64,000 nt of DNA, from IMG/VR virus record IMGVR_UViG_3300034062_002027; one strand, given 5' to 3'. Origin of the DNA: a virus. Of this stretch, positions 9,532 to 42,114 are shown in pieces. A model generated the notes under the pieces. It worked only from the letters and a program-made list of their open reading frames with translations, searched no databases and had not been told where the DNA came from. The first letter of the stretch is position 1. Each line of letters opens with the position of its first letter. A program made the translations under genes and the position numbers.

Positions 9532-9738
9532 ATGAAATTTGTACACCACGACACGGGCGAATGGGTTCGCCACAACCACAACACTGCGGCAACACGCACA
9601 TCCAGCAGTGTCGTTGAATACGAAAACCTCAACGACATCGACAACAACTTTGTGCGGGACACCTTTGCATGGATGCTGGACAACGGCATGACTGTGACTA
9701 ACTGCGGCTCCAGCGTGTTTCAAATTCGCACCGCTTGA
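9532..9738 (+). CDS. hypothetical early protein (68 aa)
   Basis: ATG at 9532 (or 9526) follows AACTGGAGA. Confidence 0.5.
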   Translation: MKFVHHDTGEWVRHNHNTAATRTSSSVVEYENLNDIDNNFVRDTFAWMLDNGMTVTNCGSSVFQIRTA

Positions 9739-9785
9739 CCCCTTCCATTTAAACAAGATACAATCACTAGCACTGGAGAATTGAT

Positions 9786-10364
9786 ATGACTACAACCAAC
9801 CGTGAAGACTGGCTTTCAGCCGCCGTGAGTGAACTGCGCCCCTTCTTCGATGCAGTGGGTGCGCCCCTGCCAGCGAACGTTCGTGTGACCTGTGGTTTCC
9901 CGTCCAACGCCAAGCGCTCGGGTGCGATTGGTGAATGCTGGGCAGACACTGCCTCCGCTGATCAGACCTTTGAGGTTTTGATCAGCCCTGTGCTGGATGA
10001 CCCCTTGCGGGTGTTCGATGTGCTGGTGCATGAGTTGTGCCATGCCACTGCTGGGGCAATGAACCACGGTGTCAACTTCCAAAAGGTTGCCGCCTTGATG
10101 CACCTTGTGCCGAGCGCTGGCCCCAAGGGCTGGAAAGCCACTGGCCCGTCAGCCTCATTCATCCCTACATTCGGGTCAATCATTGACTCGCTGGGCTCAT
10201 ACCCTCATGCCGCCCTGACCATGTCCAACCGCAAGGTGCAGACCACAAGGATGCTCAAAGCAGTGTGCCCGTCCTGTGGGTACACCGTGCGCCTCACCTC
10301 TAAGTGGGCGGCCCTTGGCCTCCCTTCCTGCCCCGTCGATTCCGACACCCTCAACCTCGCTTAA
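9786..10364 (+). CDS. SprT-like zinc metalloprotease-domain protein with C-terminal zinc ribbon
   Basis: HExxH motif (VLVHELCHATAG) and C-terminal CPSCGYTVRLTSKW...SCP. CTGGAGA RBS. Confidence 0.6.
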   Translation: MTTTNREDWLSAAVSELRPFFDAVGAPLPANVRVTCGFPSNAKRSGAIGECWADTASADQTFEVLISPVLDDPLRVFDVLVHELCHATAGAMNHGVNFQKVAALMHLVPSAGPKGWKATGPSASFIPTFGSIIDSLGSYPHAALTMSNRKVQTTRMLKAVCPSCGYTVRLTSKWAALGLPSCPVDSDTLNLA

Positions 10365-10377
10365 TTGGAGACCTGCC

Positions 10378-11841
10378 ATGACTGACCTGCAACTCAAAAT
10401 CAAAATCTTGGAATTGCCCATCGCAGTGGTGCTGGGTGCTCATGCCCAGTATGGGCGGGGCACTTTTTCGGGCACACCGTCCGAGCAAAAGTCCAAGGCC
10501 GCTGATTACCTGATCTCTTGCATTCGGGCCAACAACCTGACCCTTGATGAAATCAGGAACGCCACACCCGTGAAGCCCGTGTCCACATCCGCTCCATCGG
10601 TGGATGTGTCTGCCATCACCGCCGTTGCCAACCGTGCCGAGGCGTCTGCCCTTGATGCCCACTCCAGCCTGAGTGCCTTGCGACTCACCCTGCGGGATGT
10701 GGAGAGCCAACTCACCTGTGAGATCAGAGACCGCCGTGATGACATCCTTGATGTCAAAGATGCCCTCGACAAGATGGCCTTCCAAGTCGGACAGGTTTCC
10801 ATTGATGACCGTAAGGTTCAAGATGCCGTTGCCAAGGTGGTCGCTGATGCGTTTAAACCCTTTGAGCAAGCCGTGAAAGCCGCCGGGGCTCAGGCTGTAG
10901 TCGCAGACCTTGCATCTGTCCAAGTGGTGGATGTCAAAACCTGCTATGACGCTTTTGGTGTCGATGTGGTGGATACCAAGGGAAACCCCCTGAACGTGAG
11001 CATCTGGAATGACCCGTCTGCCCCTGCGGTTGACCCTCACTTCATCTGGACTGATGACATTCTCCAGCACCTGATCTTGTCTCAGGACTCGGGTGAGTCG
11101 GTCTGGTTCGGTGGGCCAAAGGGTACAGGTAAATCCGAGACCGCCCGTCAGTTTGCCGCCGTTACGGGCCGTGCGTTTAAACGCATCAACTTCCACAAGT
11201 ACACCAGCGCCGAGGATTACATCGGTGCGGTGGGTTTGGAAAACGGGCAGACCGTGTTCAAGCGAGGCGACTTCCTCGCCGCCTTTACGCACCCCTCGAC
11301 CGTCATCCTGTTGGATGAGGTGACCAACGCTGACCCCGGTGAACTGGCCCCGTTGAACGGCTTTTTGGAGCCCAACAGCGCCGTGTCATTCGGTGGGTCT
11401 GTCCAGACCCGTGCCCCCGGTGTGCTGGTGTTTGCCGCTGACAACACGCTGGGCAATGGTGACGATACAGGCCGCTACGCTGGCACACGCCAGATGAACA
11501 GCGCCCTTGTTGACCGCTTCGCCCGTGTGGTGCAGTTTGACTACCTGCCCCTAGCCTCTGAGGTGGAAGCCTTGGTGCGTCACACTGGATGCAACCCCAA
11601 GCTTGCCCTGCACATCCTTGAGGCTGTCCATGTGGCTCGGCGTCAGGTGCTGACAGGCGAGGTGATAGATGCTCCCTCCATTCGGTCGGTGATCGCCTTC
11701 ATTCGTGCCTTGCGTGTCTTGCCTGTAGACAAGGCATGGGCGACAACCATTGCCGCCCGTCAACCAGCCGAGTCCCTTCCGGGCTTGTCTGCTATCTATG
11801 CGTCTTGCATCTGCGAGACAACAATCAACAACTACTTGTGA
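10378..11841 (+). CDS. AAA+ ATPase, MoxR/CobS-like (AAA_5 type)
   Basis: Walker A GGPKGTGKSE and Walker B VILLDEVTNA, then LVFAADNT...NSALVDRFARVV. The start at 10378 follows TTGGAGACC; the track start at 10276 would overlap the upstream gene. Confidence 0.8.
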   Translation: MTDLQLKIKILELPIAVVLGAHAQYGRGTFSGTPSEQKSKAADYLISCIRANNLTLDEIRNATPVKPVSTSAPSVDVSAITAVANRAEASALDAHSSLSALRLTLRDVESQLTCEIRDRRDDILDVKDALDKMAFQVGQVSIDDRKVQDAVAKVVADAFKPFEQAVKAAGAQAVVADLASVQVVDVKTCYDAFGVDVVDTKGNPLNVSIWNDPSAPAVDPHFIWTDDILQHLILSQDSGESVWFGGPKGTGKSETARQFAAVTGRAFKRINFHKYTSAEDYIGAVGLENGQTVFKRGDFLAAFTHPSTVILLDEVTNADPGELAPLNGFLEPNSAVSFGGSVQTRAPGVLVFAADNTLGNGDDTGRYAGTRQMNSALVDRFARVVQFDYLPLASEVEALVRHTGCNPKLALHILEAVHVARRQVLTGEVIDAPSIRSVIAFIRALRVLPVDKAWATTIAARQPAESLPGLSAIYASCICETTINNYL

Positions 11842-11848
11842 GGTTCCC

Positions 11849-13462
11849 ATGAACATCGAAACCATCCTGACCCGCCCCTCTGTGCGTGGTCTTGAATTCC
11901 GTCTCGGCCTTGAAGCCTACGCCCACAAGGTGGGGTCTGCCCTTGGCCTGTCCCGTGTGCGTGTCCTCTGGAGGGCAGATGTCCAGACTGCTGGCATCAA
12001 TGCCAACGGCGACCTGTACTTGGCGGGTGTGCCTGATGATGCCAAGGTGAGCCGCGCCTTGGTGGTCAAGTACGCCGCCTATGTGGTGCATGAGTTGTTG
12101 CACCACAAGTACACCGACTTTGATGTCATGTCCCCTGAACAGTACATTCGCACCCTGCACAATGCGGTGGAGGATGGCTGGATTGAGAACACCGGGATTG
12201 CCTCTGGCTTGCTGGGTAACATCGGCCCCCTGCTGGGTGAGATGATCGACACCATGACCCGTGAGGCTTTGGCGACCGTCAAGGATTGGAACGATCCCCG
12301 CCAGTACCCCTACATCCTCGCTGTGCATTGCCGTAAACACGCCACTGTCAAGTGCCCCACCAACCCCAAGTTGACCGCCATCTTCGATGAGGCCGCACGT
12401 TGGTGCTTGACTGCAAAGGACAGCAACCAGACCCTCGCAATTGCCGAGTGGGTTTATGAGCAGATCAAGCAAGCCAGCAAGGATGAGCCCAAGGGTGATG
12501 GCAAGAAAGACAAGGACAAGGACGGCAAGGACGGCCCAAGCAAGCCCTCAGACGGGCCTACAAGCCCCGATCAGCCCGAGGGTGAGGACAAGGGTGCAGA
12601 CAAGGCCGATAAGGGCTCTGACGGCCCCGCTGGCCCCGTGCAATCACCCGAGGGTGTCGAGGCCGACCCCGTGGAGCCCAAGCTTGGCGAGGGTGGCATT
12701 GCTGGCGCTTACTCCACTGACGTTTCACTCAGGGATGAGCGCTTCCACCTGTCCAGCCGCACCATCCCTGACTTGGTCAACGCACCCGTCCCTGCCAAGC
12801 TTCGCTATGAAGTTAAGCGCCTGTTTGATGACTCGGGTCTGTCTGACTTCACCCGCAACCGCAAGGCCGGGGTTGTCAACATCCATGCCCTGCCAACAGT
12901 GGCCACTGGCAACGACCGTGTGTTTAAACGCCGCCTTGAGGTGGAGGGCATTGACTCTGCGGTGGTGATCTGCCTTGATGTCTCGGGCTCCATGTTTGAG
13001 GTGGAGTCTTGGAGACCAAAGCCCCTGATCGGCCCCGCTGTTCAGGCTTGCCGTGCCCTGCTGGAGACGCTGGATGCGGCTGGGGTCAAGACTGCAGTGC
13101 TGTGCTTTGGTGGGCAGATTTCAGTGCCCAAGGGCTTCAACAAGAACGTCAAACAGGCAAGCACCCTGCTGGGCACGGTACAGGCTGGCGGTGGTACGAA
13201 CGACTACGCCGCCCTGCGCTACGCCCACCAGATGCTGGCCCAGCGCCCCGAGCGCCGCAAGATCGCCTTTGTGATCACTGACGGGTACGGCAAGCCTGAT
13301 GCTGTGAAACAGCAAGTCGCATCGGGTAAAGCCTTGGGTGTGACAACCATCGGCATCGGCATCGGTGCTGATGTGTCGTGGATATACGGGCAAGCAGTGA
13401 CTGTCCGGGACATTGCCGACCTCGGCAACGCAAGCTTCAAGCAGATCAAGCTTGCGGCATAA
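11849..13462 (+). CDS. VWA-domain protein, CobT-like, with N-terminal HExxH motif
   Basis: MIDAS-like motifs VICLDVSGSM...GGTNDYAAL...FVITDGYG. The N-terminal region has VVHELLHHKYTD, and the central linker is K/D/G/P-rich. The ATG at 11849 lies 7 nt after the AAA+ stop. Confidence 0.75.
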   Translation: MNIETILTRPSVRGLEFRLGLEAYAHKVGSALGLSRVRVLWRADVQTAGINANGDLYLAGVPDDAKVSRALVVKYAAYVVHELLHHKYTDFDVMSPEQYIRTLHNAVEDGWIENTGIASGLLGNIGPLLGEMIDTMTREALATVKDWNDPRQYPYILAVHCRKHATVKCPTNPKLTAIFDEAARWCLTAKDSNQTLAIAEWVYEQIKQASKDEPKGDGKKDKDKDGKDGPSKPSDGPTSPDQPEGEDKGADKADKGSDGPAGPVQSPEGVEADPVEPKLGEGGIAGAYSTDVSLRDERFHLSSRTIPDLVNAPVPAKLRYEVKRLFDDSGLSDFTRNRKAGVVNIHALPTVATGNDRVFKRRLEVEGIDSAVVICLDVSGSMFEVESWRPKPLIGPAVQACRALLETLDAAGVKTAVLCFGGQISVPKGFNKNVKQASTLLGTVQAGGGTNDYAALRYAHQMLAQRPERRKIAFVITDGYGKPDAVKQQVASGKALGVTTIGIGIGADVSWIYGQAVTVRDIADLGNASFKQIKLAA

Positions 13463-13500
13463 ACCAACCGCCCCTTCGGGGGCTTTCAAGGAGAATTGAA

Positions 13501-13680
13501 ATGAACGCAGAACATGAATGGCACATTGAGTTGGACTACATCCTGAGCAAGGTGCGCTACGCCAAAGAGATTCTCGGTGAGGGCGGTCTCGACTGCGCCT
13601 ACCGAGCCAACAAGGAACTGGAGCCTGTGCTGTTTAGGCTTCAAGAACTGTGCGAGATAACCAAAGGAGAGACAGCATGA
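13501..13680 (+). CDS. hypothetical protein (59 aa)
   Basis: AAGGAGA RBS before ATG 13501. The stop overlaps the next start (ATGA). Confidence 0.5.
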   Translation: MNAEHEWHIELDYILSKVRYAKEILGEGGLDCAYRANKELEPVLFRLQELCEITKGETA

Positions 13681-14432
13681 AGACATTCACACCAGACTGG
13701 ATTGCATGGATCAAGACCAACGTGGAGGCTGGTGTAAACAAGGATGCCATCTTCAAGATACTGCTGGACGCTGGTCATGCTCACGACTACATCCAAAAGG
13801 AGATGGGCTACACACCCAGCCTTTGGCTTGGAGTGTCAGACAACCCTCGCAGGGCATTGCATGAATTCCTTCCGAACTACACCCGCACAGGCTTTACAAA
13901 GCTTCCAGCCCCGACCCTTTTGTTTCGCAAGATACTGGAGTTTTATCGTGTGGGGCTGGAGTCTCAAAAGGACGAGTTTGTGGAGGGGGAGTTCATTGTC
14001 AACCCCTCCACGCCGAGCCGAGCGCCCAGCACCCTGATTGACCTGCCTGATGAACTGCGCACAGAGATACACGACACCCTCAAGCCACTGATTGAGGCGT
14101 GGTGCGGCCTGTCTGTTGAGCCGTCCTATGTGTACGGGATTCGCCTGTACAGGGACAAGGCCGTACTCAAGCCGCACCGTGACCGCATTGAGACCCACAT
14201 CTTTGGGGTCATCTTGAACGTTGACCAGAACGTAAGGGAGGACTGGCTTTTGATGATTGAGGATCATGCGTACAACGAGCATCAAATCACCCTCAAGCCG
14301 GGGGAGATGTTGTTCTACGAGAGCGCCCGTTTAAAGCATGGCAGACCAATCCCGCTCGAGGGTAGCGTCTTCGCCAATATCTTTTCCCATTTCACACCCA
14401 CTGGTTACATACCGCCAAAGGAGACAACATGA
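13677..14432 (+). CDS. 2OG-Fe(II) oxygenase, prolyl-4-hydroxylase-like
   Basis: HxD...H facial triad candidates (KPHRDRIETH ... ARLKHGRP) in a jelly-roll-sized C-terminal half. 4-nt overlap with the upstream gene. Confidence 0.65.
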   Translation: MKTFTPDWIAWIKTNVEAGVNKDAIFKILLDAGHAHDYIQKEMGYTPSLWLGVSDNPRRALHEFLPNYTRTGFTKLPAPTLLFRKILEFYRVGLESQKDEFVEGEFIVNPSTPSRAPSTLIDLPDELRTEIHDTLKPLIEAWCGLSVEPSYVYGIRLYRDKAVLKPHRDRIETHIFGVILNVDQNVREDWLLMIEDHAYNEHQITLKPGEMLFYESARLKHGRPIPLEGSVFANIFSHFTPTGYIPPKETT

Positions 14433-14548
14433 GACATGACCCGTTTGAATTCCACGGACTTACCCGTGCCGAGCGATGGTGGCGAATCGTTTTCTTGGTG
14501 GCCCTCATCGCCGTGCTGGGCCTTGATGTTTTTTACTGGAGACCCTGA
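14429..14548 (+). CDS. small membrane peptide (39 aa, below ORF-track cutoff)
   Basis: Hand translation MRHDPFEFHGLTRAERWWRIVFLVALIAVLGLDVFYWRP contains one hydrophobic helix. Strong AAAGGAGA RBS, and overlaps on both sides (ATGA, TGATG). Confidence 0.5.
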   Translation: MRHDPFEFHGLTRAERWWRIVFLVALIAVLGLDVFYWRP

Positions 14549-14781
14549 TGACCGTAGAGCAGGTGACAGATGATGACTTGTTTAAACGCATGAGCAGTGC
14601 GTACGACCAAGTGGTGGCGGTGCTTGATGCGCACAAACTTGACAGGGATGAGGGCTTTTCCTTGATGGCGCAGATTCTCTGCCAGTTGTCGCATGACAAC
14701 CGTGAGGACTTTATATGGAAGATGGACAAGTTTTACAGCATGGAGCGCTTTTTGCGCCCACAACCAACGGAGGTGCATTGA
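14548..14781 (+). CDS. hypothetical protein (77 aa)
   Basis: ORF-track ORF with a CTGGAGACC RBS, coupled to its neighbours. Confidence 0.55.
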   Translation: MTVEQVTDDDLFKRMSSAYDQVVAVLDAHKLDRDEGFSLMAQILCQLSHDNREDFIWKMDKFYSMERFLRPQPTEVH

Positions 14782-15011
14782 TGATAGAACTGATTCAAAA
14801 ACTGCGTGACGAGCATCTTAAGGTCACGATCCACGACATTGGCGAGGACAAGCCCGTGTTTGCTCTGGCTGTTGTGATTGACGAGCCTTTAGACGTTTGG
14901 TATGTGGCATTTGCGATAGGGTATGGGTTCACGCCTAAAATTATCGGCAAACTGCTGGTGTTCCCGCAATTGGTGGTGGACGTAAAGACCTACGACTTCA
15001 TCTGTGCGTAA
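14781..15011 (+). CDS. hypothetical protein (76 aa)
   Basis: Internal ATG at 14781 overlaps the previous stop (TGATGA). Confidence 0.5.
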   Translation: MIELIQKLRDEHLKVTIHDIGEDKPVFALAVVIDEPLDVWYVAFAIGYGFTPKIIGKLLVFPQLVVDVKTYDFICA

Positions 15012-15237
15012 GGTCTCGACCCTGATTGACCCCTGCCCTCACTTTGCCCGACAGGCCTTGAAATACTCCCACCTTCTGGAGATCACCAATGACACAACTA
15101 ACGTCAAGCGAAACGAGCGGTTCATCAGGTACAACCCAACCCGGCAGGTCTGGTGCGTTTACACGCAATCAACGACTCCCCAAATCTACGGGAGATATAC
15201 CAACGTGATGAGCGCCGTGTTTCATGCGCTCAAATGA
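15004..15237 (+). CDS. hypothetical protein (77 aa), GTG start uncertain
   Basis: Last ORF before the strong terminator. No clear RBS. Confidence 0.35.
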   Translation: MRKVSTLIDPCPHFARQALKYSHLLEITNDTTNVKRNERFIRYNPTRQVWCVYTQSTTPQIYGRYTNVMSAVFHALK

Positions 15238-15239
15238 AA

Positions 15240-15277
15240 GGGGGGAGAAGTTTCGGCTTCTCCCCCCTGTTTTTTTT
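15240..15277. terminator. rho-independent terminator at the convergence of blocks B and C
   Basis: 11-bp perfect stem GGGGGGAGAAG/CTTCTCCCCCC with a 6-nt loop, followed by T8 on the plus strand. Weaker T-run on the minus strand. Confidence 0.8.
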
Positions 15278-15289
15278 CGTCTGTACTTT

Positions 15290-16984
15290 TCAGAAATTGT
15301 CCAGATTCTCCGAGTACGTCCCTGCGGTCTTGTTGAAGATCAGGGTTGTCTCGCCTTGAGTGCCTACCCAGCGGTAGCGACTCTTCCAGACTGCCAACTC
15401 CGTGTAGGTGTCCTTGCGGTGTATCGTAATGCCGCAGTCTGTCTTCGCCCACCATGCCATCGACCCACTGATTGACATCCCGTCTGGACGGGGTTGCTCA
15501 ACACCAGAGCGGTTGATCTTGCTTGGATGGGCGACAAACCATGTGTGAACGTCATGTGCCATGCAGAACTTCTTGACCCGTGTCAGCATATCGCTGATGG
15601 CATTGGTCTCGGTCTTGTCCTTGCCTTCCATCTCAATGTAGTTGTACGGGTCAATCACCAGACCCCTCACCCCCATTCTCTTGACCGCCGCCTTGGCCCT
15701 TGTGAGGATTGAGTCCAAGGTGCTGGGCTCTTCGCCGTTGGTGTCGATGAAAAGGAAGTGGTCATTCACCCAGTTAAACGCATCCTTCTTCACCTGATCG
15801 GACATCCTGTCCCGGCCCTCATAGAACGATTGGTGGCTGTACAACTCCATCAGGCGGGTGATGTGGACTTCGGGTTGATTCTCAAAGGAGCAGATCGCAA
15901 ACTTCCAATCGGATGATCTTGCGAGGTTGACCATCAACTGATCAACAAAGTTGGACTTGCCTGATGACGGGTAACCTGTGACCACCGTCAACTGCCCCGG
16001 CGCTACGGTGTAAATGTTGTCCACCGATGGGTAGCCAGTGCTGAACCCCTTGCCCGTACCCTTGTTGTACAGGTCGTTGATCTTGTCAAAAAATGTTGAT
16101 GCTTCTGAAATGCCGTTGATGGGATAGGCTTCTGCGCCTTCGATGATTTTGTTTAAACGTTCCTTCGGGCCGTCGTCAGCCGTCGGGTCGTCGTCCATCC
16201 ATGCTTCGTTTAAATCCTTCCATGCAAACTTGGCGAGTCGGCATTTCTCTTTTCCGATGCGTCTTGCCAGTTCCTCTGCAAGAGCCTGTCCCGGCCCGTC
16301 CTGATCGGTGGCGAGGACAACGTAGGGGGCGGCATCGATGATCTCTCTGGCGTTCCACACAAAGGCAAACTTCTTGTCTTCGGTCGGCAGCACTTTGCCA
16401 TCTGCGACCTTGACGGGAGCGCCGCCCGGAACACTGACCACATTGTTTAAACCTGCTTCGATGGCGGTCAAACAATCCATCTCTCCTTCGACAATGATGA
16501 TCGGTTCACCCTTGACCACCTGATCGATCCCAAAGAAATCGTGGGCTCCACCTGCGTCCTGTGTGAAGTCCTTCGCTTCGATACTTCGGTACTTTGCCGA
16601 GACGAGCGCCCCGCCTCTGTAATAGGGGAACCCAACTGCCTGTGTGGGTTTGCTGAGACGGGAGAAAAACTTTTCTGCTGAGAACAACCGCATCCTGTCT
16701 GCGGTTTCTTTTGAGATGCCCCGAGACTTGAGCCAGTCGTAGTGGGGAGGTGATAGTTTGTTGCTGGTTATCGTTGGTGACGGGACGGCGGTCAATTTAA
16801 ACTCCTTGGGTTGCACCGATCCTGATGCAGAGCAGTGATGGCAGTGGTAGACAACGGCCCCGTCCGTCTTGCGGGTCAGCGTCATGTCTTTGATGTTTTG
16901 TTTTCTGCGGTCTGGAGAACAGAACGGGCAGATCACTCGGGTTGTTTCGTTGAAGTACGTCTCTTGGACGAGGGCTTCAATCAT
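15290..16984 (-). CDS. bifunctional DNA primase/helicase (T7 gp4/Twinkle-like)
   Basis: N-terminal Cys4 zinc finger (CPFCSPD...CHHCSASG), TOPRIM (IIIVEGEMDCLTAIEAG, VSVPGGAP), and DnaB-like Walker A GYPSSGKSNF with LVIDPYN. Confidence 0.85.
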   Translation of the reverse strand: MIEALVQETYFNETTRVICPFCSPDRRKQNIKDMTLTRKTDGAVVYHCHHCSASGSVQPKEFKLTAVPSPTITSNKLSPPHYDWLKSRGISKETADRMRLFSAEKFFSRLSKPTQAVGFPYYRGGALVSAKYRSIEAKDFTQDAGGAHDFFGIDQVVKGEPIIIVEGEMDCLTAIEAGLNNVVSVPGGAPVKVADGKVLPTEDKKFAFVWNAREIIDAAPYVVLATDQDGPGQALAEELARRIGKEKCRLAKFAWKDLNEAWMDDDPTADDGPKERLNKIIEGAEAYPINGISEASTFFDKINDLYNKGTGKGFSTGYPSVDNIYTVAPGQLTVVTGYPSSGKSNFVDQLMVNLARSSDWKFAICSFENQPEVHITRLMELYSHQSFYEGRDRMSDQVKKDAFNWVNDHFLFIDTNGEEPSTLDSILTRAKAAVKRMGVRGLVIDPYNYIEMEGKDKTETNAISDMLTRVKKFCMAHDVHTWFVAHPSKINRSGVEQPRPDGMSISGSMAWWAKTDCGITIHRKDTYTELAVWKSRYRWVGTQGETTLIFNKTAGTYSENLDNF

Positions 16985-18868: not shown

Positions 18869-18943
18869 TGGTTGCGGAGGACGGACTCGCACCGTCGATC
18901 TTCTGGTTATGAGCCAGACGGATTACTTCTTTCCCACCCCGCA
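18869..18943 (-). tRNA. tRNA-like gene, anticodon CAT (Met or Ile2), with non-canonical D and T loops
   Basis: Hand-folded cloverleaf:
- Acceptor TGCGGGG/CTCCGCA, including one G-U pair.
- D stem GGA/TCC.
- Anticodon stem TCTGG/CCAGA with loop CTCATAA.
- Variable loop AGATC.
- T stem GACGG/CCGTC with loop TGCGAGT.
- Discriminator A plus an encoded CCA.
U8, A14, G15:C48, U33 and G53:C61 are present, but G19 and T55 are not. Confidence 0.6.
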
Positions 18944-19519: not shown

Positions 19520-20377
19520 ATGGAAGTTACGAACGTTCATGGTGTACCAGAGCCTCTGGTCACCCTCGCAAAGCGGGAATACTACAGCAAGGGGGACTCG
19601 CAGTACAGCGTTACTGAGATCATGTCTCCCCCGAAGATTCGCAGGATGCGGGAAAAATACAACGACCAGATCAAGCAGGACGCAAGCGATATGTTGTGGA
19701 CTCTGCTTGGCTCTGCCCTCCACGTTGTGATGGAGAGGGGCGAGACACCCGGGTGGCTCAAGGAAGAGCGCATCTTTACGGAGGTCAATGGGGTCAAGAT
19801 CAGCGGGGCGATTGACCTGCAAGAGGAAACGCCCGAGGGCGTGATCATCCACGACTACAAGTTCACCTCTGCATGGGCAGTCATGCAAGAGAAGGAAGAG
19901 TGGACTCAGCAACTCAACATCTACAAATGGCTGGTGGAGACCGTCAAGCGCAAGAAGGTGGTGGGCCTGAAGATTTGCGCCTTGGTGCGGGACTTCAACA
20001 GGCATGACCGTAAGGAAGGCTACCCAGCCGCTCCCATCGCCATGGTGGACGTTCCTATGTGGGACAGCGTACAGACCGAGACGTATATACGGGAGCGTCT
20101 GGAGATGCACCGTGAGGCCAAGATGAGGGCGGACTTTGGGGAAGACCTCCAGAACTGCTCCAACGAGGAACGCTGGATGTCGGAAACGACATTCGCTGTG
20201 AAGAGGGAGGGCAGGAAGACTGCCATCCGTGTGTTTAAAACCATCGAAGAAGCCAGCACATTAGCTGAGAAGGAGAAGGGCTATGTCGAGACAAGACTTG
20301 GAGAAGCACGGCGCTGTGCCGGGAACTACTGCGGTGTCTCGCAGTGGTGCGACCAGTACCAGAAAGAGCTTTCGTGA
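19520..20377 (+). CDS. PD-(D/E)xK nuclease, Cas4/RecB-like with C-terminal Cys cluster
   Basis: Motifs GSALH and GAIDLQEE...IIHDYKF, plus the C-terminal RRCAGNYCGVSQWC. Confidence 0.7.
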   Translation: MEVTNVHGVPEPLVTLAKREYYSKGDSQYSVTEIMSPPKIRRMREKYNDQIKQDASDMLWTLLGSALHVVMERGETPGWLKEERIFTEVNGVKISGAIDLQEETPEGVIIHDYKFTSAWAVMQEKEEWTQQLNIYKWLVETVKRKKVVGLKICALVRDFNRHDRKEGYPAAPIAMVDVPMWDSVQTETYIRERLEMHREAKMRADFGEDLQNCSNEERWMSETTFAVKREGRKTAIRVFKTIEEASTLAEKEKGYVETRLGEARRCAGNYCGVSQWCDQYQKELS

Positions 20378-20663
20378 AAAGAAAGAGGCTTGGTGGGCTT
20401 GGCACAAGGAGAACCCTCAGGTGTGGGTTCTGTTCCAGAGGTTCTCGCTCGAAGCCATAGCCCATAGACACAAGAAGATTAGCCACTGGCTGATCATCAA
20501 CCGAATCAGATGGGAGACAGCCATCGTTACAACCGGAGGAGATTTCAAAATATCAAATGATTACATTGCTTTTTACGCCCGTCTTTGGAAAGCAAAGTAC
20601 CCCGAACACAAAGACTTGTTTAACACGAAACGAATGATTGGAGAGATACATGAGCCAGATTGA
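20283..20663 (+). CDS. conserved-looking hypothetical protein; start uncertain
   Basis: The ORF overlaps the 3' end of the nuclease gene by 95 nt. In-frame GTGs at 20316 and 20334 are alternative starts. The Trp-rich core is AWWAWHKENPQVWVLFQRF...IRWETA. Confidence 0.45.
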   Translation: MSRQDLEKHGAVPGTTAVSRSGATSTRKSFREKKEAWWAWHKENPQVWVLFQRFSLEAIAHRHKKISHWLIINRIRWETAIVTTGGDFKISNDYIAFYARLWKAKYPEHKDLFNTKRMIGEIHEPD

Positions 20664-21318
20664 ACTCTTGAAGCTGAACGTCAACGAGCACGTTGAGAAG
20701 AAGCAAAACCTGTCTTACCTGTCATGGGCATGGGCATGGGCAGAAGCCTTGAAGGCCGACCCTGCCGCCACCTTTGAGGTCAAGACGTTCAAGCATGACG
20801 CTTACACGGAAGTGCCGTACATGGCAGTCAATGGAACTGCGATGGTCTGGGTCACCGTCACCGTATTTGGGAAGGCCATGACTTGCTTCCTGCCCGTCAT
20901 GGATCACCGCAACAAACCCATCCAGAACCCTGACGCATTTCAGGTCAACACAGCCATCATGCGATGCATGGTCAAGGGGCTGGCACTGCACGGATTAGGG
21001 CTCTATATCTATGCGGGTGAGGACTTGCCTCAAGTCGAAGAAACAGCGCCTGTAATCGTCAAGGCGCTCACTCCAGACGGCACTGCGATGGCAGATGTTC
21101 AGGTCAACACCGGACAGGCAGATGCCAATGCCGAATTGTTTGCCGAAGGGATGATGACCTACACAAACCATTGCACTGATGTCAAAGGTTTAAACAGTTA
21201 CTGGAAAGCCAATCAAGGGCAGCTTGATGGTCTCAAAGTAAGCCACCCTGATCTTTATGGTCAGGTTCGTAACCGCTTCGCAGAACTCAAGAAGCAACTC
21301 ACGGAGAAAGCAGAATGA
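20650..21318 (+). CDS. Rad52-like single-strand annealing protein (Sak/DUF1071 type)
   Basis: LSYLSWAWAWAEALKADP...LPVMDHRNKPI...RCMVKGLALHGLGLYIYAGEDLP. GGAGAG RBS before ATG 20650. Confidence 0.7.
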   Translation: MSQIELLKLNVNEHVEKKQNLSYLSWAWAWAEALKADPAATFEVKTFKHDAYTEVPYMAVNGTAMVWVTVTVFGKAMTCFLPVMDHRNKPIQNPDAFQVNTAIMRCMVKGLALHGLGLYIYAGEDLPQVEETAPVIVKALTPDGTAMADVQVNTGQADANAELFAEGMMTYTNHCTDVKGLNSYWKANQGQLDGLKVSHPDLYGQVRNRFAELKKQLTEKAE

Positions 21319-26640: not shown

Positions 26641-26824
26641 CGGCAAGGGCAGAGGCCTCAAGGCCCATGACTACCGGATAGCAGCCCTGTGCTACCGGTG
26701 TCATGCCGAGTTGGACCAAGGATCAAAGATGTCTAAGCAAGAGCGTGTAAACATGTTCAATGAAGCCCATCGGTCAACGATAGGCTGGCTCTTCGAGAAC
26801 AACATCATTGGGCTTGTGCGATAG
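26534..26824 (+). CDS. DUF1364/YbcO-like putative nuclease
   Basis: LLEAVRSCPCQACGAQDGTVVAAHSN...GKGRGLKAHDYRIAALCYRCHAELD matches the prophage YbcO-type Cys/His pattern. TTG start. Confidence 0.55.
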   Translation: MYRNQKLLEAVRSCPCQACGAQDGTVVAAHSNQLIDGKGRGLKAHDYRIAALCYRCHAELDQGSKMSKQERVNMFNEAHRSTIGWLFENNIIGLVR

Positions 26825-29800
26825 CCTTTTTGATCTCTTGGATGTTTGAGGTGATTGCGCTTTCCACTCGGCTGATTTCCAGCAGGGAGTCCCGCTTCTC
26901 ATCTGCGGTCATCGTGGATGCCCTAATGGCTACCCGCATCTCCCGCAGGTCTGTCATGGTCTTCTCGGTGTCCCGAACATAGTCCTTGAATGCCAGAGTG
27001 CCTTGGTTCTTAATCAGGTACTCCGTGTATTCTTCGGGCTGGTCGGTCTTCTCGAGCAGGTTCATGGTCCTGACGGTCGTGTCCACTGCGTCCTTGAGTT
27101 CGTAGTACTGCGTCACAAACCCACGGGCCTCTGGATCAGAGGCAAACCTCTTGATGACGGGAAGCTGCTCAAACCTTTTGCTGGGCTTTGGGCTGTCCCC
27201 GAACTGATCCATCACGATGTCGATGGTGTCAATCGCGTACATGCCGATTGTCCCCGTGTAGCCCTTGATGATGTGATCTACCTTCATGGGTGACAGGCCC
27301 AAGTTCTGAGCAAGCAGCTTGGCAAAGTTGGATGTGCTTGGCCCAACCTGAAACTCTGGCTCAATGTCCTTCATGCCCTGCCCGAGGATCGGACGCATCG
27401 TGAACATGTTGTAGTCAACGTACGCCTCGAGTATTGGCTTGACGGTCTGCGGGATTGGGTTGAAAGCAAACGTCGAGACTGCGGCCCTTATCATGGACTT
27501 CTGCAAGTCCTCACCCGTGTCATTGCCGAATGAGTAGGCCATGATCCGCTCGGGGATCACCTTGAACAACACACCCACCTCGAACGGGATTGGAATCTTT
27601 GCGCCAATGGCGGGGATGATCCAGTTGTTGTCCTTGGTCTCTTGCTCCTGCTTCTTGTACTCCTCGTCATCCGAGACCAGCATCCAGTACAGACCCGACA
27701 GGGCCATCATGGTCATGCCACGCGCAAAGAACTGGCGCTGGATAGATTCAGCGTCCTTGTTGTTCATGTTGCCTGTGGAGGCGCGGTAGAACAAATCCAG
27801 ACCCTGTAGACGGGCGTTGAAGAACGGAACGGCGGCGGTCAGCACCCGGATCAAGGGAGAGCTTCCCTTGCGGTGGAAGTTCATCACCTCCAGAGATCGG
27901 TACAGGGCCTCTGCCTCGTTGCCCGTGTCGGCCAGAACACGCTCATAGATCAAGGCGCGGGTAGCTGCATCGGAGGCTGTTGTGCCTTTACCCAGAGCGT
28001 CCCAGACGGATGTAAACGGGCGAAGATAGATTGGGTCTTTCTTGCCTGCTTTCTTGGCCAAGTCGTCTTCCAGTTTAAACCCGGACTGCTCGATGTTCTC
28101 GCTGAACTCGTAGCCGCCAATGATGCCAGCGTCCAGCATCGCCTCGAAGCCGGGAGACTTGCGTGCAAGCCCTTTGCCGAAATTGATGACCGTACCTGCG
28201 ATGGGCGTCATCTTTGTGCCCGAAGTCACCCACGCAGACAGTGAGTCACGCATCATGTTTGCCATCATGAACCCCGGCTCCTTGGTCACCAAGTTACGCA
28301 GGAGGTCGGCTGGCGCAGACAGGAAGCCCATGAAGGGCAGCTCTGACTGGTTCAGGCTCATCATGGCGTTTACAAGCAATGGGTCCGGCGTGCGGTAGGA
28401 GACAAGGTTTCCCTTCTCCAGCACGTTAATGATGTCAGGCCCATCCTCTTTTGTATTTAAACGTACAGCGCCCATACCCGGTGCTTGGACCTGCACCGCC
28501 ACGTCAAGCGCTCTTTGAGCTGCGTAGTTCTTGATGCCAGCCTGAATGGAGGACTGAGTGTTACGCACCATCGTCTCGAGGAAGTCTGCCAGCGGGGCTT
28601 CATCAGCAACGGCTCCCTTGAGCTTCTTCGGTGGCTTAACCCCAGACAGAGACTGGAACAGGTTTGGCCCGAGGGTCTTGTCCCCGTCCATCTGACGATA
28701 GAAGGGGATGTAGTCGGCGTACTTGGTATATATCTGGCCGCGCTCTTTGGAAAGAACACCCGTGTCCACCATGTACTGAACCAGCCCGTTGTTGAAGGCA
28801 ATCAGGTCTTTCTGAACGCTGACAAATTCAGGGTGCTTCTGCTCAAGAATCTTTGCAAAGGCCACGTCGGCGCTATCGATACCGGTCAGCGTGCCTTGTT
28901 TGTTTAAACGTTGTCCACGCTTAACCATCGCCCAGTATTGATAACGCTGGTAGACCGCTGGATCACCACGCTCAGCCAAAGGAGCAAGAGAGGCGATCAA
29001 GCCTTTGACTCTCTTGTCGATGGTGGTGATGCCGTTACGCAGGACAGGGATGCCGCCGTTGCGATCATCAAAGCCCATGGCAGAAGCCGCAACACCAGCG
29101 CCAAGGTCAGACATCAACGCAGCAGACTCTGCGCTCTGATCTGCAAGGAGGGCAGCCCCGCCCATTTGCTCTGCCCTCTTCTTGTCATAGACAGACATCT
29201 GGTTGTAGCGGTTGAGGTACTTCGCACGGAAGTCGGCAGCGCTGGCTGGCGTGATGGCATCAACAATGTTCTGGATGACAGTCTTGCGTTCGCGCCTTGA
29301 TGTGGTCTCACCCATCCGGTCCTGAAGATTCTGCGGGATGGTTGGCAAGCTGAACCGCATGTCCTTGGACTCGCGGCTGAAGTCACCAATGTTGCCAGTG
29401 ATGGACTTGACCTGCTCTGCTTTAAACACAGCGAGGTTCTTCTCACCACCCTCATTGACGAAGAAAGAATCAAAGCCCAAAGCCTTGATGGCGTCTTGAA
29501 CCTGCTTGTCCTCAATGTTTTCCCAGTGGCCTTGATTAAAGAACGCAGGCTGCTTGCCTTTGAGTGTCTTGTCCCCGGCCATTCTGTTCATGACCTGCTG
29601 CACATGTTCGGGGTTTTCGTAGTCAAACGGCGTCTCGGCTCTCACCCAAAGCGGGTACACGTTTACAGACTCACCCTTTTCAGCACGCCTGCCGCCATAA
29701 CGCTCAGCCTCTTCTGCGCTTGGGCTGACAAAGATTGGCTTGTTCTCGCGGAACTGCGTAAATATGTCTTGCGATCCATGAAACATTGGGACTGCGCGGC

Positions 29801-37440: not shown

Positions 37441-42114
<4,674 letters not shown>

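Follow-up and report, generated by a model that had tools for sequence, protein, structure and literature searches.

A SprT-like protease gene lies contiguous with a CobS/CobT-like ATPase–VWA pair in a transcription unit of an uncultured tailed phage

Three contiguous genes, encoding a SprT-like protease (ORF1), a CobS-like AAA+ ATPase (ORF2) and a CobT-like VWA protein (ORF3), open a non-structural transcription unit in an uncultured tailed phage of ~64.6 kb. We propose, with a probability of about 0.55, that ORF2 and ORF3 act as an ATP-driven motor and an adaptor with a protease head, directed at a protein target early in infection, and that they are not a cobalt chelatase. Judged from sequence comparison, the unit is a composite, in which this lineage-core trio is followed by an exchangeable tail of small genes, ORF4–ORF9. 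Here, we describe its domains, the conservation of its motifs, its synteny and the boundaries of the operon, and we weigh other readings of the same genes.

Layout of the transcription unit

The window, i.e. the whole stretch of phage DNA analysed, is 64,000 nucleotides long. The interval under study (9786–14548) makes up most of one transcription unit, about 9765–15268, situated between packaging genes and primase/recombination genes. Its features, in window coordinates, are as follows.

9735–9764, + strand: sigma-70-like promoter candidate (TTGACC, 18-nt spacer, TACAAT; 10/12 consensus positions)
9786–10364, + strand: ORF1, 192 aa, SprT-like zincin with a C-terminal zinc ribbon (H82, E83, H86, H94; C161, C164, C182)
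10378–11841, + strand: ORF2, 487 aa, CobS-like MoxR-class AAA+ ATPase (AAA+ part, about residues 183–487; N-terminal extension of ~180 aa)
11849–12484, + strand: ORF3 head, residues 1–212, CobT_N-type, zincin-like (HELLH at 81–85; N105, E108, D109, E113)
12485–12658, + strand: ORF3 linker, residues 213–270, disordered, K/D/G/P/E-rich (pLDDT <50 at residues 215–257)
12659–12946, + strand: ORF3 pre-VWA segment, residues 271–366, conserved (VEP, AKLRYEVKRLF, FKRR)
12947–13462, + strand: ORF3 VWA domain, residues 367–537, complete MIDAS (D377, S379, S381, T450, D478)
13470–13483, + strand: small GC hairpin, UUCG loop, separating the conserved trio from the variable genes (z-score -0.94)
13501–13680, + strand: ORF4, 59 aa, no recognisable family, apparent variable cargo (4/80 related loci)
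13677–14432, + strand: ORF5, 251 aa, prolyl-hydroxylase-like 2OG-Fe(II) oxygenase, apparent variable cargo (H167, D169, H221)
14429–14548, + strand: ORF6, 39 aa, putative gene with one hydrophobic segment, apparent variable cargo (0/80 related loci)
14548–14781, + strand: ORF7, 77 aa, patchily conserved (12/80 related loci)
14781–15011, + strand: ORF8, 76 aa, with its own GGAGG ribosome-binding site (15/80 related loci)
15004–15237, + strand: ORF9, 77 aa, GTG start (start codon uncertain), last gene of the unit (28/80 related loci)
15239–15268, strand ".": strong intrinsic terminator (13-bp stem followed by T8)

The seven ORFs of the original prediction were recovered as described and with the same spacing, namely gaps of 13, 7 and 38 nt followed by overlaps of 4, 4 and 1 nt. 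The coupled chain runs on past ORF7 to ORF8, which overlaps ORF7 by 1 nt and was missing from the original list, and to ORF9. Coupling this tight is common among phage genomes and by itself unremarkable.

At the 5' end, the promoter-like site lies inside a 47-nt gap ahead of ORF1, whose ATG is preceded at 7 nt by the ribosome-binding site GGAGA. Promoter-like sites are no more numerous in the region than chance would give, and the candidate has only its position to commend it. The terminator is far stronger than expected by chance (-27 kcal/mol, z-score -4.9, with 0/200 shuffles folding equally well) and is common to the unit and to a convergent primase/helicase gene. The hairpin downstream of ORF3 is indistinguishable from shuffles, and its significance is doubtful.

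The SprT-like protease and the conserved trio

ORF1 had been read as a SprT-like zinc protease, an assignment that its HELCH motif, H94 and the cysteines C161, C164 and C182 support. It matches phrog_6361 (1.6e-39), and its actinophage homologues in SEA-PHAGES genomes carry the annotation 'SprT-like protease'. Like the SprT, Spartan and Wss1 zincins and the phage SprT-like family (phrog_6361), it has an HExxH followed by GHG..F and a zinc-binding C-terminal module; as a point of difference, ORF1 itself scores beneath the Pfam SprT-like threshold (17.5 versus 25.6 bits). That model is matched by 17 of 30 distant homologues. The active-site and cysteine residues are intact in all 119 close relatives and in 121 of 146 distant cluster representatives; about 10% of the distant representatives lack the catalytic residues and keep the zinc ribbon.

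We surveyed the neighborhood in 80 related viral contigs, in which the terminase large subunit (TerL) is 74 to 91% identical and the VWA protein 40 to 70%. ORF2 is present in 80/80 of these loci, and ORF1, ORF2 and ORF3 are contiguous in all 76 with enough upstream sequence to be scored. Even in relatives with as little as 40% VWA identity, the spacing between ORF1 and the pair stays short, while flanking genes on both sides turn over.

In genomes outside this lineage, the AAA+/VWA pair and the SprT-like gene are found independently of each other. Homologues of ORF1 without the pair are found in actinophages, adjoining primase, polymerase and DNA-binding genes, in sphingomonad plasmids beside parA and repB, and in one bacterial metagenome-assembled genome (MAG). 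Conversely, the pair lacks an adjacent ORF1 in Mae-Yong1326-1, CRP-810 and the pRA1 and pIFL1 plasmid loci, and among the matches listed, the cultured phage genera with ORF1 homologues and those with ORF3 homologues do not overlap. All of this would suit a SprT-type protease that belongs to the replication module and acts on its own, e.g. by clearing phage DNA of trapped or cross-linked proteins, with its adjacency to the pair simply inherited. Common ancestry within one viral family, and not a joint function, may indeed account for the adjacency. Against this stand the unbroken contiguity and short spacing described above amid changing neighbors, and the place of ORF1 as the first gene behind the promoter-like site; we regard an independent ORF1 as a serious possibility, though not the one we favor.

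The CobS/CobT-like pair and its proposed action

The assignment of ORF2 to the MoxR/CobS-like AAA_5 ATPases is sound. It matches AAA_5 (1.5e-14), bpMoxR and phrog_249 (7.9e-41), and all motifs are present: Walker A (GPKGTGKS), Walker B (LLDE), the sensor 1 asparagine, the arginine finger and sensor 2. Its N-terminal extension is covered in at least 62 of the 80 related loci.

ORF3 (11849–13462, 537 aa) consists of the head, linker, pre-VWA segment and VWA domain listed above, in keeping with the original description of a VWA/MIDAS protein with an N-terminal HELLH and a K/D/G/P linker, which is disordered in the structure model. It matches VWA_2 (8e-13), CobT_C and CobT structures (1.9e-10); the best Foldseek matches are NorD in NorQD complexes, and full-length structural matches are viral CobT/VWFA proteins. 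Both the HELLH and the five MIDAS residues are invariant among 25 ORF3 homologues. In the pre-VWA segment, V275, E276, P277, R319, F359, K360, R361 and R362 are invariant and the model is partly of low confidence; by analogy, we infer that this segment is a candidate equivalent of the pore-inserting CobT shaft.

The head, modeled with pLDDT >90 as a helix, a small sheet and further helices, appears to belong to the CobT_N family through a transitive chain of profile comparisons. It aligns with the N-domain of the pRA1 protein (hhalign probability 95.3%, E 2.3e-8), which in turn matches Pfam CobT PF06213 above the gathering score; of nine mobile-element N-domains, three match PF06213. A profile of the mobile-element N-domains has the CobT_N crystal structure as its best, though weak, PDB match (E 0.39), and the direct comparison of the ORF3 head with canonical CobT_N is also weak (34% probability). 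The HExxH that had been noted in ORF3 is intact, as predicted, and it would belong to the CobT N-terminal domain rather than to an added protease module. An N-terminal metallopeptidase in phage MoxR–vWA pairs was described previously (PMC7824862), and the 'peptidase' annotation of a viral CobT-type protein has also been pointed out (PMC8651126).

The signature HExxH...NxxEDxxxE is found in this phage, Mae-Yong1326-1, CRP-810, pRA1, pIFL1 and a T4-like cyanophage 'peptidase', and every phage or plasmid version examined retains it. In two genuine cobaltochelatase CobTs, the HExxH is missing, with DAFAL and DSMAL at that position. Based on these two, the zincin motif would separate mobile-element versions from true CobT. 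Its retention shows selection on the metal site, which is not a demonstration of proteolysis.

These comparisons bear on the view, proposed in PMC8651126 and used in most phage annotations, that such pairs are vitamin B12 auxiliary metabolic genes, whose CobS and CobT products would commandeer host CobN and increase cobalamin production during infection. The family-level similarity and the domain order of ORF3, which is that of cobaltochelatase CobT, agree with it. Nevertheless, the scores fall far below the NCBIfam equivalog cut-offs (for ORF2 against CobS TIGR01650, 61.6 versus 558.55 bits at 6.7e-17; for ORF3 against CobT, 40 versus 759.05 bits), ORF2 carries the extra N-terminal extension, and the zincin site is strictly kept here and lost in the two genuine CobTs. 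A scan for CobN covered the five largest structural-region ORFs of the window and gave no match. Hundreds of conjugative plasmids of enterobacteria, mostly Klebsiella, Escherichia and Salmonella, carry close relatives with this architecture, and these hosts are not known to encode CobN. The pair also recurs amid replication and recombination genes: primase/helicase, exonuclease and Sak annealing protein genes neighbor the operon in this phage, a RecA-family ATPase adjoins the pair in Mae-Yong1326-1, bet and exo in pRA1, and the clamp and clamp-loader genes gp45, gp44 and gp62 in a cyanomyovirus. A role in cobalamin synthesis is therefore unlikely.

The same neighborhoods weigh on another proposal, made for group 2.2 jumbo phages, in which a MoxR–vWA pair is a virion assembly chaperone whose metallopeptidase head processes structural proteins. 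Exactly such a fusion has been described in jumbo phages, with a precedent in the tail assembly of Acidianus two-tailed virus (PMC7824862), and in our phage the terminase small-subunit, terminase large-subunit and portal genes lie 2.5–7.5 kb upstream of ORF1. However, these are on the opposite strand, so that transcription of the operon runs away from the packaging genes and towards the convergent primase/helicase gene; the cyanomyovirus pair is located with clamp and clamp-loader genes; and an identical protein architecture is found in conjugative plasmids, which make no virions. We consider a function in assembly improbable.

For the motor and adaptor that we favor, we infer complex formation, proteolytic activity, expression timing and target, taking as a template the cryo-EM preprint on CobSTN (bioRxiv 10.64898/2026.07.21.739949) and the NorQD structures. 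By analogy with CobST and NorQD, ORF2 would form a hexameric ring, onto which one ORF3 would dock via its N-domain, with the pre-VWA segment threading into the pore. The MIDAS would hold an acidic residue of the target protein, and ATP hydrolysis would drive remodeling of the target. The zincin head probably also cleaves it, since the zincin residues are the only ones invariant across phage and plasmid versions, and ORF1 would be a possible DNA-directed helper protease. The target is more likely to be a protein met at or near the element's DNA early after entry than CobN in cobalt insertion, most likely a host defense complex or another DNA-bound complex.

The variable tail and comparison with known systems

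ORF5 has no match in Pfam. Its AlphaFold model (pLDDT 90.5), with a small helical domain at the N terminus, resembles prolyl hydroxylases of the bacterial and HIF types (Foldseek 4iw3_A, 2.5e-8; PHD2), the HxD...H residues are invariant and the family match is phrog_2954, all of which bears out the original call of a prolyl-hydroxylase-like oxygenase. ORF6 likewise has the single hydrophobic stretch expected of the transmembrane peptide that had been predicted (Kyte-Doolittle 19-residue mean up to 2.1). Neither gene is conserved with the trio. Of the related loci, 60 extend far enough downstream to be scored for ORF5, and none has it (0/60); ORF6 is in none of the 80 at an E-value threshold of 1e-4. 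The nearest relatives of ORF5 (64–72% identity) are in unrelated phages, flanked by a DNA polymerase A gene and a PD-(D/E)XK nuclease gene; no AAA_5 or VWA gene is called in the flanks that were read there. Only 88 clusters are related to ORF5, versus at least 409 for ORF3 and 739 for ORF1. On this comparative evidence, ORF5 is strain-specific cargo, outside the conserved module.

The original prediction had suggested that all seven ORFs could form a machine for host takeover or anti-defense, by which a host complex would be remodeled, cleaved or hydroxylated; translational coupling from one promoter-like site to one terminator speaks for a single machine, and it is scarcely credible when ORF5, ORF6 and ORF4 (4/80) are set against the trio at 76/76, so that co-conservation holds for ORF1–ORF3 and fails for ORF4–ORF6.

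The conserved core is thus a widespread phage and plasmid CobS/CobT-like pair joined to a SprT-like protease, a largely ordinary combination. Such pairs had been noted as known in phages with an undefined role, correctly: the two-gene cobS–cobT cluster that tailed phages and archaeal viruses carry (PMC8651126) is the same thing as the phage MoxR AAA+/vWA pair with a metallopeptidase (PMC7824862). There too, an AAA_5 ATPase gene stands directly 5' of one for a 540–700 aa HExxH–linker–VWA/MIDAS protein, and HExxH...NxxEDxxxE is common to the known versions and ORF3. Unlike other viral pairs, the one described here is fixed behind a SprT-like protease gene. The extension of ORF2 is shared with Mae-Yong1326-1 and CRP-810 but not with every other viral pair, and identity to any cultured phage is at most 32%.

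With cobaltochelatase CobNST (9UKA and related, 21VU), ORF2 shares the ATPase family and motifs, and ORF3 the order of peptidase-like CobT_N, disordered linker, pre-VWA segment and VWA domain with MIDAS; the CobT linker of ~90 residues is the counterpart of that of ORF3 (bioRxiv 10.64898/2026.07.21.739949). In contrast, genuine CobT_N has no HExxH, ORF2 and ORF3 fall short of equivalog scores, and their context is a phage replication/early region.

The pairs NorQ–NorD, CbbQ–CbbO and RavA–ViaA follow the same logic, in which each AAA+ hexamer works with a single VWA adaptor. The clients known or proposed for them are metabolic enzymes and complexes of the host, and no such pair is reported to have an active zincin head.

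The hde region of IncC, IncA and SXT/R391 elements comprises the Vcrx089 ATPase, Vcrx090, ssb–bet–exo, DUF3150 and a VWA protein (PMC7498323). Its CobS-like AAA_5 ATPase (pRA1; IncC-type plasmids) shares about 28% identity with the AAA+ part of ORF2, its CobT-like VWA protein has the same HExxH head as ORF3 (the 95.3% hhalign match above), and single-strand annealing and exonuclease genes are close by in both cases. The plasmid ATPase and VWA genes are split by bet and exo, whereas ORF2 and ORF3 are adjacent, and this phage has no Vcrx090 or DUF3150 homologue. Vcrx089 acts with Vcrx090 to give protection from type I restriction on entry into the recipient, which lends indirect support to the anti-defense role suggested in the original prediction; protection was shown for these two and not for the hde VWA protein, whose gene was not among the five flagged by IncC Tn-seq (PMC7498323).

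A three-gene core in a longer transcription unit

The original prediction had described seven ORFs as one tightly coupled early operon, and our ORF table reproduces its figures exactly: from ORF1 to ORF7 there are gaps of 13, 7 and 38 nt, followed by overlaps of 4, 4 and 1 nt. The coupling was correctly recognized, but the chain runs on through ORF8 and ORF9. Scanning IMG/VR for patterns derived from the ORF3 alignment retrieved 80 related loci from one viral family, in which identity is 74-91% for TerL and 40-70% for ORF3, and all ORFs were searched against these loci.

Features of the transcription unit, with matches in the related loci
9735-9764, + strand: promoter-like site, TTGACC-18-TACAAT
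9786-10364, + strand: ORF1, 192 aa, SprT-like; 76 of the 76 loci that extend far enough upstream, where it always immediately precedes the pair at a short distance
10378-11841, + strand: ORF2, 487 aa, CobS-like AAA+ ATPase; 80 of 80
11849-13462, + strand: ORF3, 537 aa, CobT-like VWA protein; 80 of 80
13501-13680, + strand: ORF4, 59 aa; 4 of 80
13677-14432, + strand: ORF5, 251 aa, hydroxylase; none of the 60 loci with at least 2 kb downstream
14429-14548, + strand: ORF6, 39 aa, one hydrophobic stretch; 0 of 80
14548-14781, + strand: ORF7, 77 aa; 12 of 80
14781-15011, + strand: ORF8, 1-base overlap with ORF7, own GGAGG site; 15 of 80
15004-15237, + strand: ORF9, next after ORF8; 28 of 80
15239-15268: strong terminator, 13-bp stem, T8, -27 kcal/mol, z -4.9
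15290-16984: primase/helicase gene, convergent with the operon

The evolutionary unit is three genes only, ORF1-ORF2-ORF3. Two contigs read gene by gene show a protein of ~200 aa, an AAA_5 ATPase, a VWA protein, unrelated small genes and the convergent primase/helicase, and the small ORFs 5' of ORF1 are as variable as the downstream ones. Neighbourhood conservation, which the original prediction proposed as a check, is found for the first three genes but not for ORF4, ORF5 and ORF6. With matches in 4 of 80, 0 of 60 and 0 of 80 loci, the 59-aa ORF, the hydroxylase and the membrane peptide therefore occupy a variable slot as exchangeable cargo, outside any conserved machine. A megablast search of the interval against cultured phages gave no match. 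When representative genomes were searched for hosts or prophages, the ORF3 profile gave no match and ORF1 found one distant locus, in a bacterial MAG.

A GGAGA lies 7 bases upstream of the ORF1 ATG, and the terminator is common to the operon and the convergent primase/helicase gene. Only its position speaks for calling the promoter-like site a promoter, because such sites do not exceed the chance count in this region. A hairpin after ORF3 was no more stable than shuffled sequence. The translation-start contexts of ORF1 (9772-9788, GGAGAATTGATATG) and ORF4 (13487-13503, GGAGAATTGAAATG) are near-identical.

The SprT-like, CobS-like and CobT-like proteins

ORF1 matches the Pfam SprT-like family PF10263 with 17.5 bits (E 0.0038), under the 25.6-bit gathering score, and SprT-like matches were obtained for 17 of 30 distant ORF1 homologues (E < 0.01; best 3.8e-8). 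A search of its profile against the PDB gave no match. H82, E83, H86 and H94 form an HExxH motif with a third downstream histidine in a GHG..F context; all 119 close representatives and 121 of the 146 distant ones retain both this HExxH...GHG..F arrangement and the C-terminal CxxC...C ribbon. The family is large (3232 clusters at 50% identity), and Arthrobacter and Microbacterium phage homologues carry the annotation SprT-like protease. In ~10% of the 50%-identity cluster representatives (P0330, P0331, P0333, P0338 and others), HExxH...H is lost and the zinc-ribbon cysteines are kept, a pattern suggesting that part of this SprT-like family may have a non-catalytic role.

ORF2 has a MoxR-class AAA+ core. 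It matches Pfam AAA_5 (1.5e-14), bpMoxR and PHROG 249, the phage 'CobS' family (7.9e-41), whereas against TIGR01650 CobS it scores 61.6 bits (E 6.7e-17, residues 187-448), below the equivalog cut-off of 558.55. Alignment with genuine CobS and the ATPase of plasmid pRA1 shows Walker A and B, sensor 1, the Arg finger and sensor 2 to be present. The N-terminal extension of ~180 aa (residues 1-180, window 10378-10920) has no family match and is possibly coiled coil in part. Extensions as long or longer occur in the CobS-like proteins of Microcystis phage Mae-Yong1326-1 and Roseobacter phage CRP-810; the plasmid ATPase and genuine CobS lack one. ORF2 and ORF3 constitute a MoxR AAA+/VWA pair, with an AAA_5 gene and a complete-MIDAS VWA gene adjacent across a 7-nt gap and the pair present in 80/80 relatives.

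ORF3 has the CobT architecture of an N-domain (CobT_N), a disordered linker and a VWA domain with MIDAS. The C-terminal VWA domain matches VWA_2 (8e-13) and CobT_C, and its MIDAS motif is complete; against TIGR01651 CobT, only the last ~80 residues align, at 40 bits (cut-off 759.05). In the AlphaFold model (mean pLDDT 78, both domains > 90), residues 1-212 comprise a helix, a small sheet and six helices, residues 215-257 are a charged disordered linker, and residues 327-366 are conserved but poorly ordered, followed by the VWA fold. Among solved structures, ORF3 is closest to NorD in NorQ-NorD complexes by fold and to CobT by sequence. Across 25 homologues down to 46% identity, H81, E82, H85, N105, E108, D109 and E113 are invariant in the N-domain, as are D377, S379, S381, T450 and D478 in the VWA domain.

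The relationship of the N-domain to CobT_N emerges through its mobile-element relatives. Searches with the N-domains of this lineage gave no Pfam match and nothing useful in the PDB, and a direct profile comparison with canonical CobT_N was not significant. The lineage profile does match the N-domain of the pRA1 VWA protein (hhalign 95.3%, E 2.3e-8), and Pfam CobT PF06213 is found above threshold in the pRA1 protein and in 3/9 mobile-element N-domains. A broader phage and plasmid profile aligns in register with genuine CobT (34% probability, E 4e-4) and, against the whole PDB, ranks the CobT_N crystal structure first, weakly (E 0.39). The direct comparison is thus suggestive only with this broader profile.

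In Synechococcus phage ACG-2014b, a T4-like cyanophage, a 703-aa 'peptidase' gene lies two genes upstream of cobS (contig L098, 479-2590). The protein combines HEVGH and NVLEDARIE with an acidic linker and a DxSxS MIDAS motif, and is therefore CobT-like.

Residues at the HExxH position of CobT and CobT-like proteins
Sphingomonas CobT (true chelatase): DAFAL
Crystallized CobT (true chelatase): DSMAL
ORF3 of this phage: HELLH
Mae-Yong1326-1: HETLH
CRP-810: HEAGH
pRA1: HEAAH
pIFL1 (plasmid): HENGH
Cyanomyovirus 'peptidase': HEVGH

All six mobile-element proteins also have N-x-x-E-D-x-x-x-E ~20 residues past the HExxH. In an alignment of nine phage and plasmid N-domains, made without the cyanomyovirus protein, the sole invariants are T47, H81, E82, H85, N105, E108, D109, E113, G123 and A199. 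The motif is kept in mobile elements and lost in the two true CobTs, which points to strong selection in the former and decay in the chelatase. This pattern indicates a conserved metal site in the ORF3 head; conservation alone is no proof of proteolysis.

The oxygenase and other genes of the window

ORF5 has no Pfam match and no PDB sequence match, and was recognized from its model (pLDDT 90.5). Foldseek matched it to the EF-Tu-bound Pseudomonas putida prolyl hydroxylase (4iw3_A, 2.5e-8) and HIF PHD2 (TM 0.5-0.63). With a double-stranded beta-helix fold and an invariant HxD...H iron triad (H167, D169, H221), it is a prolyl-hydroxylase-type 2OG-Fe(II) oxygenase. Given the Pfam, motif and model evidence on ORF1-ORF3, ORF5 and ORF6, the domain assignments of the original prediction therefore all stand.

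The nearest relatives of ORF5 beyond its own cluster (64-72% identity) come from a different kind of phage, where they are flanked by DNA polymerase A on one side and a PD-(D/E)XK nuclease on the other. Among the relatives P0267-P0313 and P0317, P0324 and P0327, some contain a fused F420H2-dependent quinone reductase-like domain (PF04075) and others have a second, N-terminal 2OG-FeII_Oxy_3 domain. ORF5 also matches phrog_2954 and phrog_3531, which are labelled 'ferrochelatase' despite the prolyl-hydroxylase-like fold of ORF5; judging from the model, this label looks like a misannotation.

Past the primase/helicase gene, window 19520-21318 (+) encodes an exonuclease and a Sak-like single-strand annealing protein. 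In relatives L003-L005 these are joined by RusA and by a gene whose product has a LexA-type DNA-binding domain, a possible sign of a temperate lifestyle. On the minus strand, the 2303-aa ORF at 26805-33716 (ART-PolyVal 4.5e-15, LPD38 2.8e-36) is a phage 'polyvalent protein' with an ADP-ribosyltransferase domain. Polyvalent proteins are thought to enter with the DNA and counter host defences. The 1557-aa ORF at 37441-42114 (-) has a weak match to RTX calcium-binding repeats (1.8e-5), and the neighbouring large ORFs at 33720-35441, 35451-37430 and 43125-45032 have no Pfam match. A single tRNA-Met (CAT) at 18869-18943 (-), between the primase/helicase and the recombination genes, was the only result of the Rfam search.

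Function of the pair and comparison with known systems

A 2026 preprint on CobSTN, based on cryo-EM and crystallography, divides CobT into an N-domain with a fold resembling an M48C peptidase, which docks on the CobS small subdomain, a disordered linker of ~90 residues, a 'shaft' entering the CobS ring, and a VWA domain (bioRxiv 10.64898/2026.07.21.739949). ORF3 has the same four-part layout. Tailed viruses infecting bacteria or archaea widely carry a two-gene cobS-cobT cluster, viral cobT often has a peptidase annotation, and the viral genes have been proposed to hijack host CobN (PMC8651126); this agrees with the earlier statement that such pairs are known in phages with an undefined role. 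In a Foldseek comparison with viral models, CobT/VWFA proteins from Gordonia phages, Thermus phage P74-26 and haloarchaeal viruses matched over the full length. Pairs of AAA+ and VWA-with-HExxH proteins are thus of a known kind, even though the original prediction counted the linkage of two HExxH domains to such a pair as part of an unrecognized combination.

Taken as a whole, we favour the following reading at a probability of roughly 55%. ORF2 and ORF3 would be the motor and adaptor of an ATP-driven pair like CobST or NorQD, a complex modelled on those structures, in which the zincin head of the ORF3 adaptor is probably active. The target would be a protein met early in infection, at or near DNA, and the pair would not insert cobalt; ORF1 would be a SprT-type protease possibly cooperating with it, and ORF4-ORF9 would be cargo. 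We are highly confident in the motor-adaptor architecture and consider it probable that the pair is not a chelatase, while a defence or DNA-bound complex as target is a tentative suggestion.

Whether the trio is one functional unit is uncertain. ORF1 may work independently of the pair, a possibility that we consider real though not the likelier one. ORF1 homologues occur without the AAA+/VWA pair in actinophages (beside primase, polymerase and DNA-binding genes), in sphingomonad plasmids (beside parA and repB) and in one bacterial MAG, and the pair occurs without an adjacent ORF1 in Mae-Yong1326-1, CRP-810, pRA1, pIFL1 and the T4-like cyanophage. As the 80 loci come from a single viral family, the gene order may reflect shared descent; against independence, adjacency of ORF1 to the pair is absolute in this lineage although both flanks change.

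In a search of plasmid proteins, 949 records (839 of them conjugative) had an ORF3-like VWA protein and 2222 an ORF2-like ATPase; most come from Klebsiella, Escherichia and Salmonella. On the IncA plasmid pRA1, the order is ATPase, hypothetical protein, bet, exo, DUF3150 and VWA protein. The gene that immediately precedes the CobT-like VWA gene encodes a DUF3150 protein in both plasmids examined (L089, 5499-6776; L090, 4005-5411), and an unrelated phage contig carrying an ORF5 homologue has a faint DUF3150 match (L093, 1-263). In ACG-2014b, the pair sits among the clamp and clamp-loader replication genes gp45, gp44 and gp62, and in Mae-Yong1326-1 a RecA-family ATPase adjoins it. The operon of this window adjoins primase/helicase, exonuclease and Sak-type annealing protein genes.

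On IncC plasmid pVCR94, vcrx089, encoding an AAA_5 + CbbQ_C ATPase, and vcrx090 share one operon with ssb, bet and exo, and their expression in the recipient gives protection from type I restriction, as established by Tn-seq, deletion and complementation; the VWA gene is absent from the genes flagged by Tn-seq (PMC7498323). It is conceivable, if unlikely, that phage and plasmid CobS/CobT-like pairs are a protease-armed AAA+ counter-defence device. Such a device would strip or degrade restriction or other DNA-bound defence complexes on incoming DNA, and in this lineage would have recruited a SprT-like, DNA-directed protease as a fixed third component. Searches of the PADLOC defence database gave only marginal generic AAA matches.

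These pairs are routinely annotated as vitamin-B12 auxiliary metabolic genes. cobS and cobT are, to our knowledge, among the most cited 'metabolic' genes of marine and freshwater phages, and we know of no demonstration of their function. Three observations speak for a function other than cobalt insertion in the mobile-element version: every catalytic-type residue of the peptidase-like head is kept in phages and plasmids but not in true CobT, the pair is repeatedly beside replication and recombination genes, and the enterobacterial IncA/IncC relatives lie in a locus with a demonstrated anti-restriction role. As far as we know, Klebsiella, Escherichia and Salmonella hosts have neither CobN nor the aerobic B12 route, so the plasmid versions are unlikely to act as chelatases. 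In the window, a CobN domain was looked for in the five largest structural-region ORFs, and none was found there. We regard a B12 role for ORF2 and ORF3 as quite improbable. A virion assembly chaperone is equally doubtful. The seven-gene machine originally proposed, which counted the hydroxylase and peptides as parts, is very improbable given their near absence from related loci.

For this window, the outcome is mainly a clean annotation in which a conserved three-gene core is separated from exchangeable cargo. The likeness to the IncA/IncC systems is partial: the ATPase core of ORF2 is homologous but only ~28% identical (pRA1; IncC-type plasmids), and no homologue of the partner Vcrx090 was found in this phage operon. 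The pRA1 counterpart of Vcrx090 was considered as an equivalent of ORF1 or of the ORF2 N-terminal extension and rejected, as neither ORF1 nor ORF2 resembles it. IncC plasmids are amenable to genetic work, which opens the question of function to experiment. The main value of this work lies in the contrast between mobile-element CobT, with its HExxH head kept, and chelatase CobT, as this contrast brings the function of viral cobST within reach of testing.
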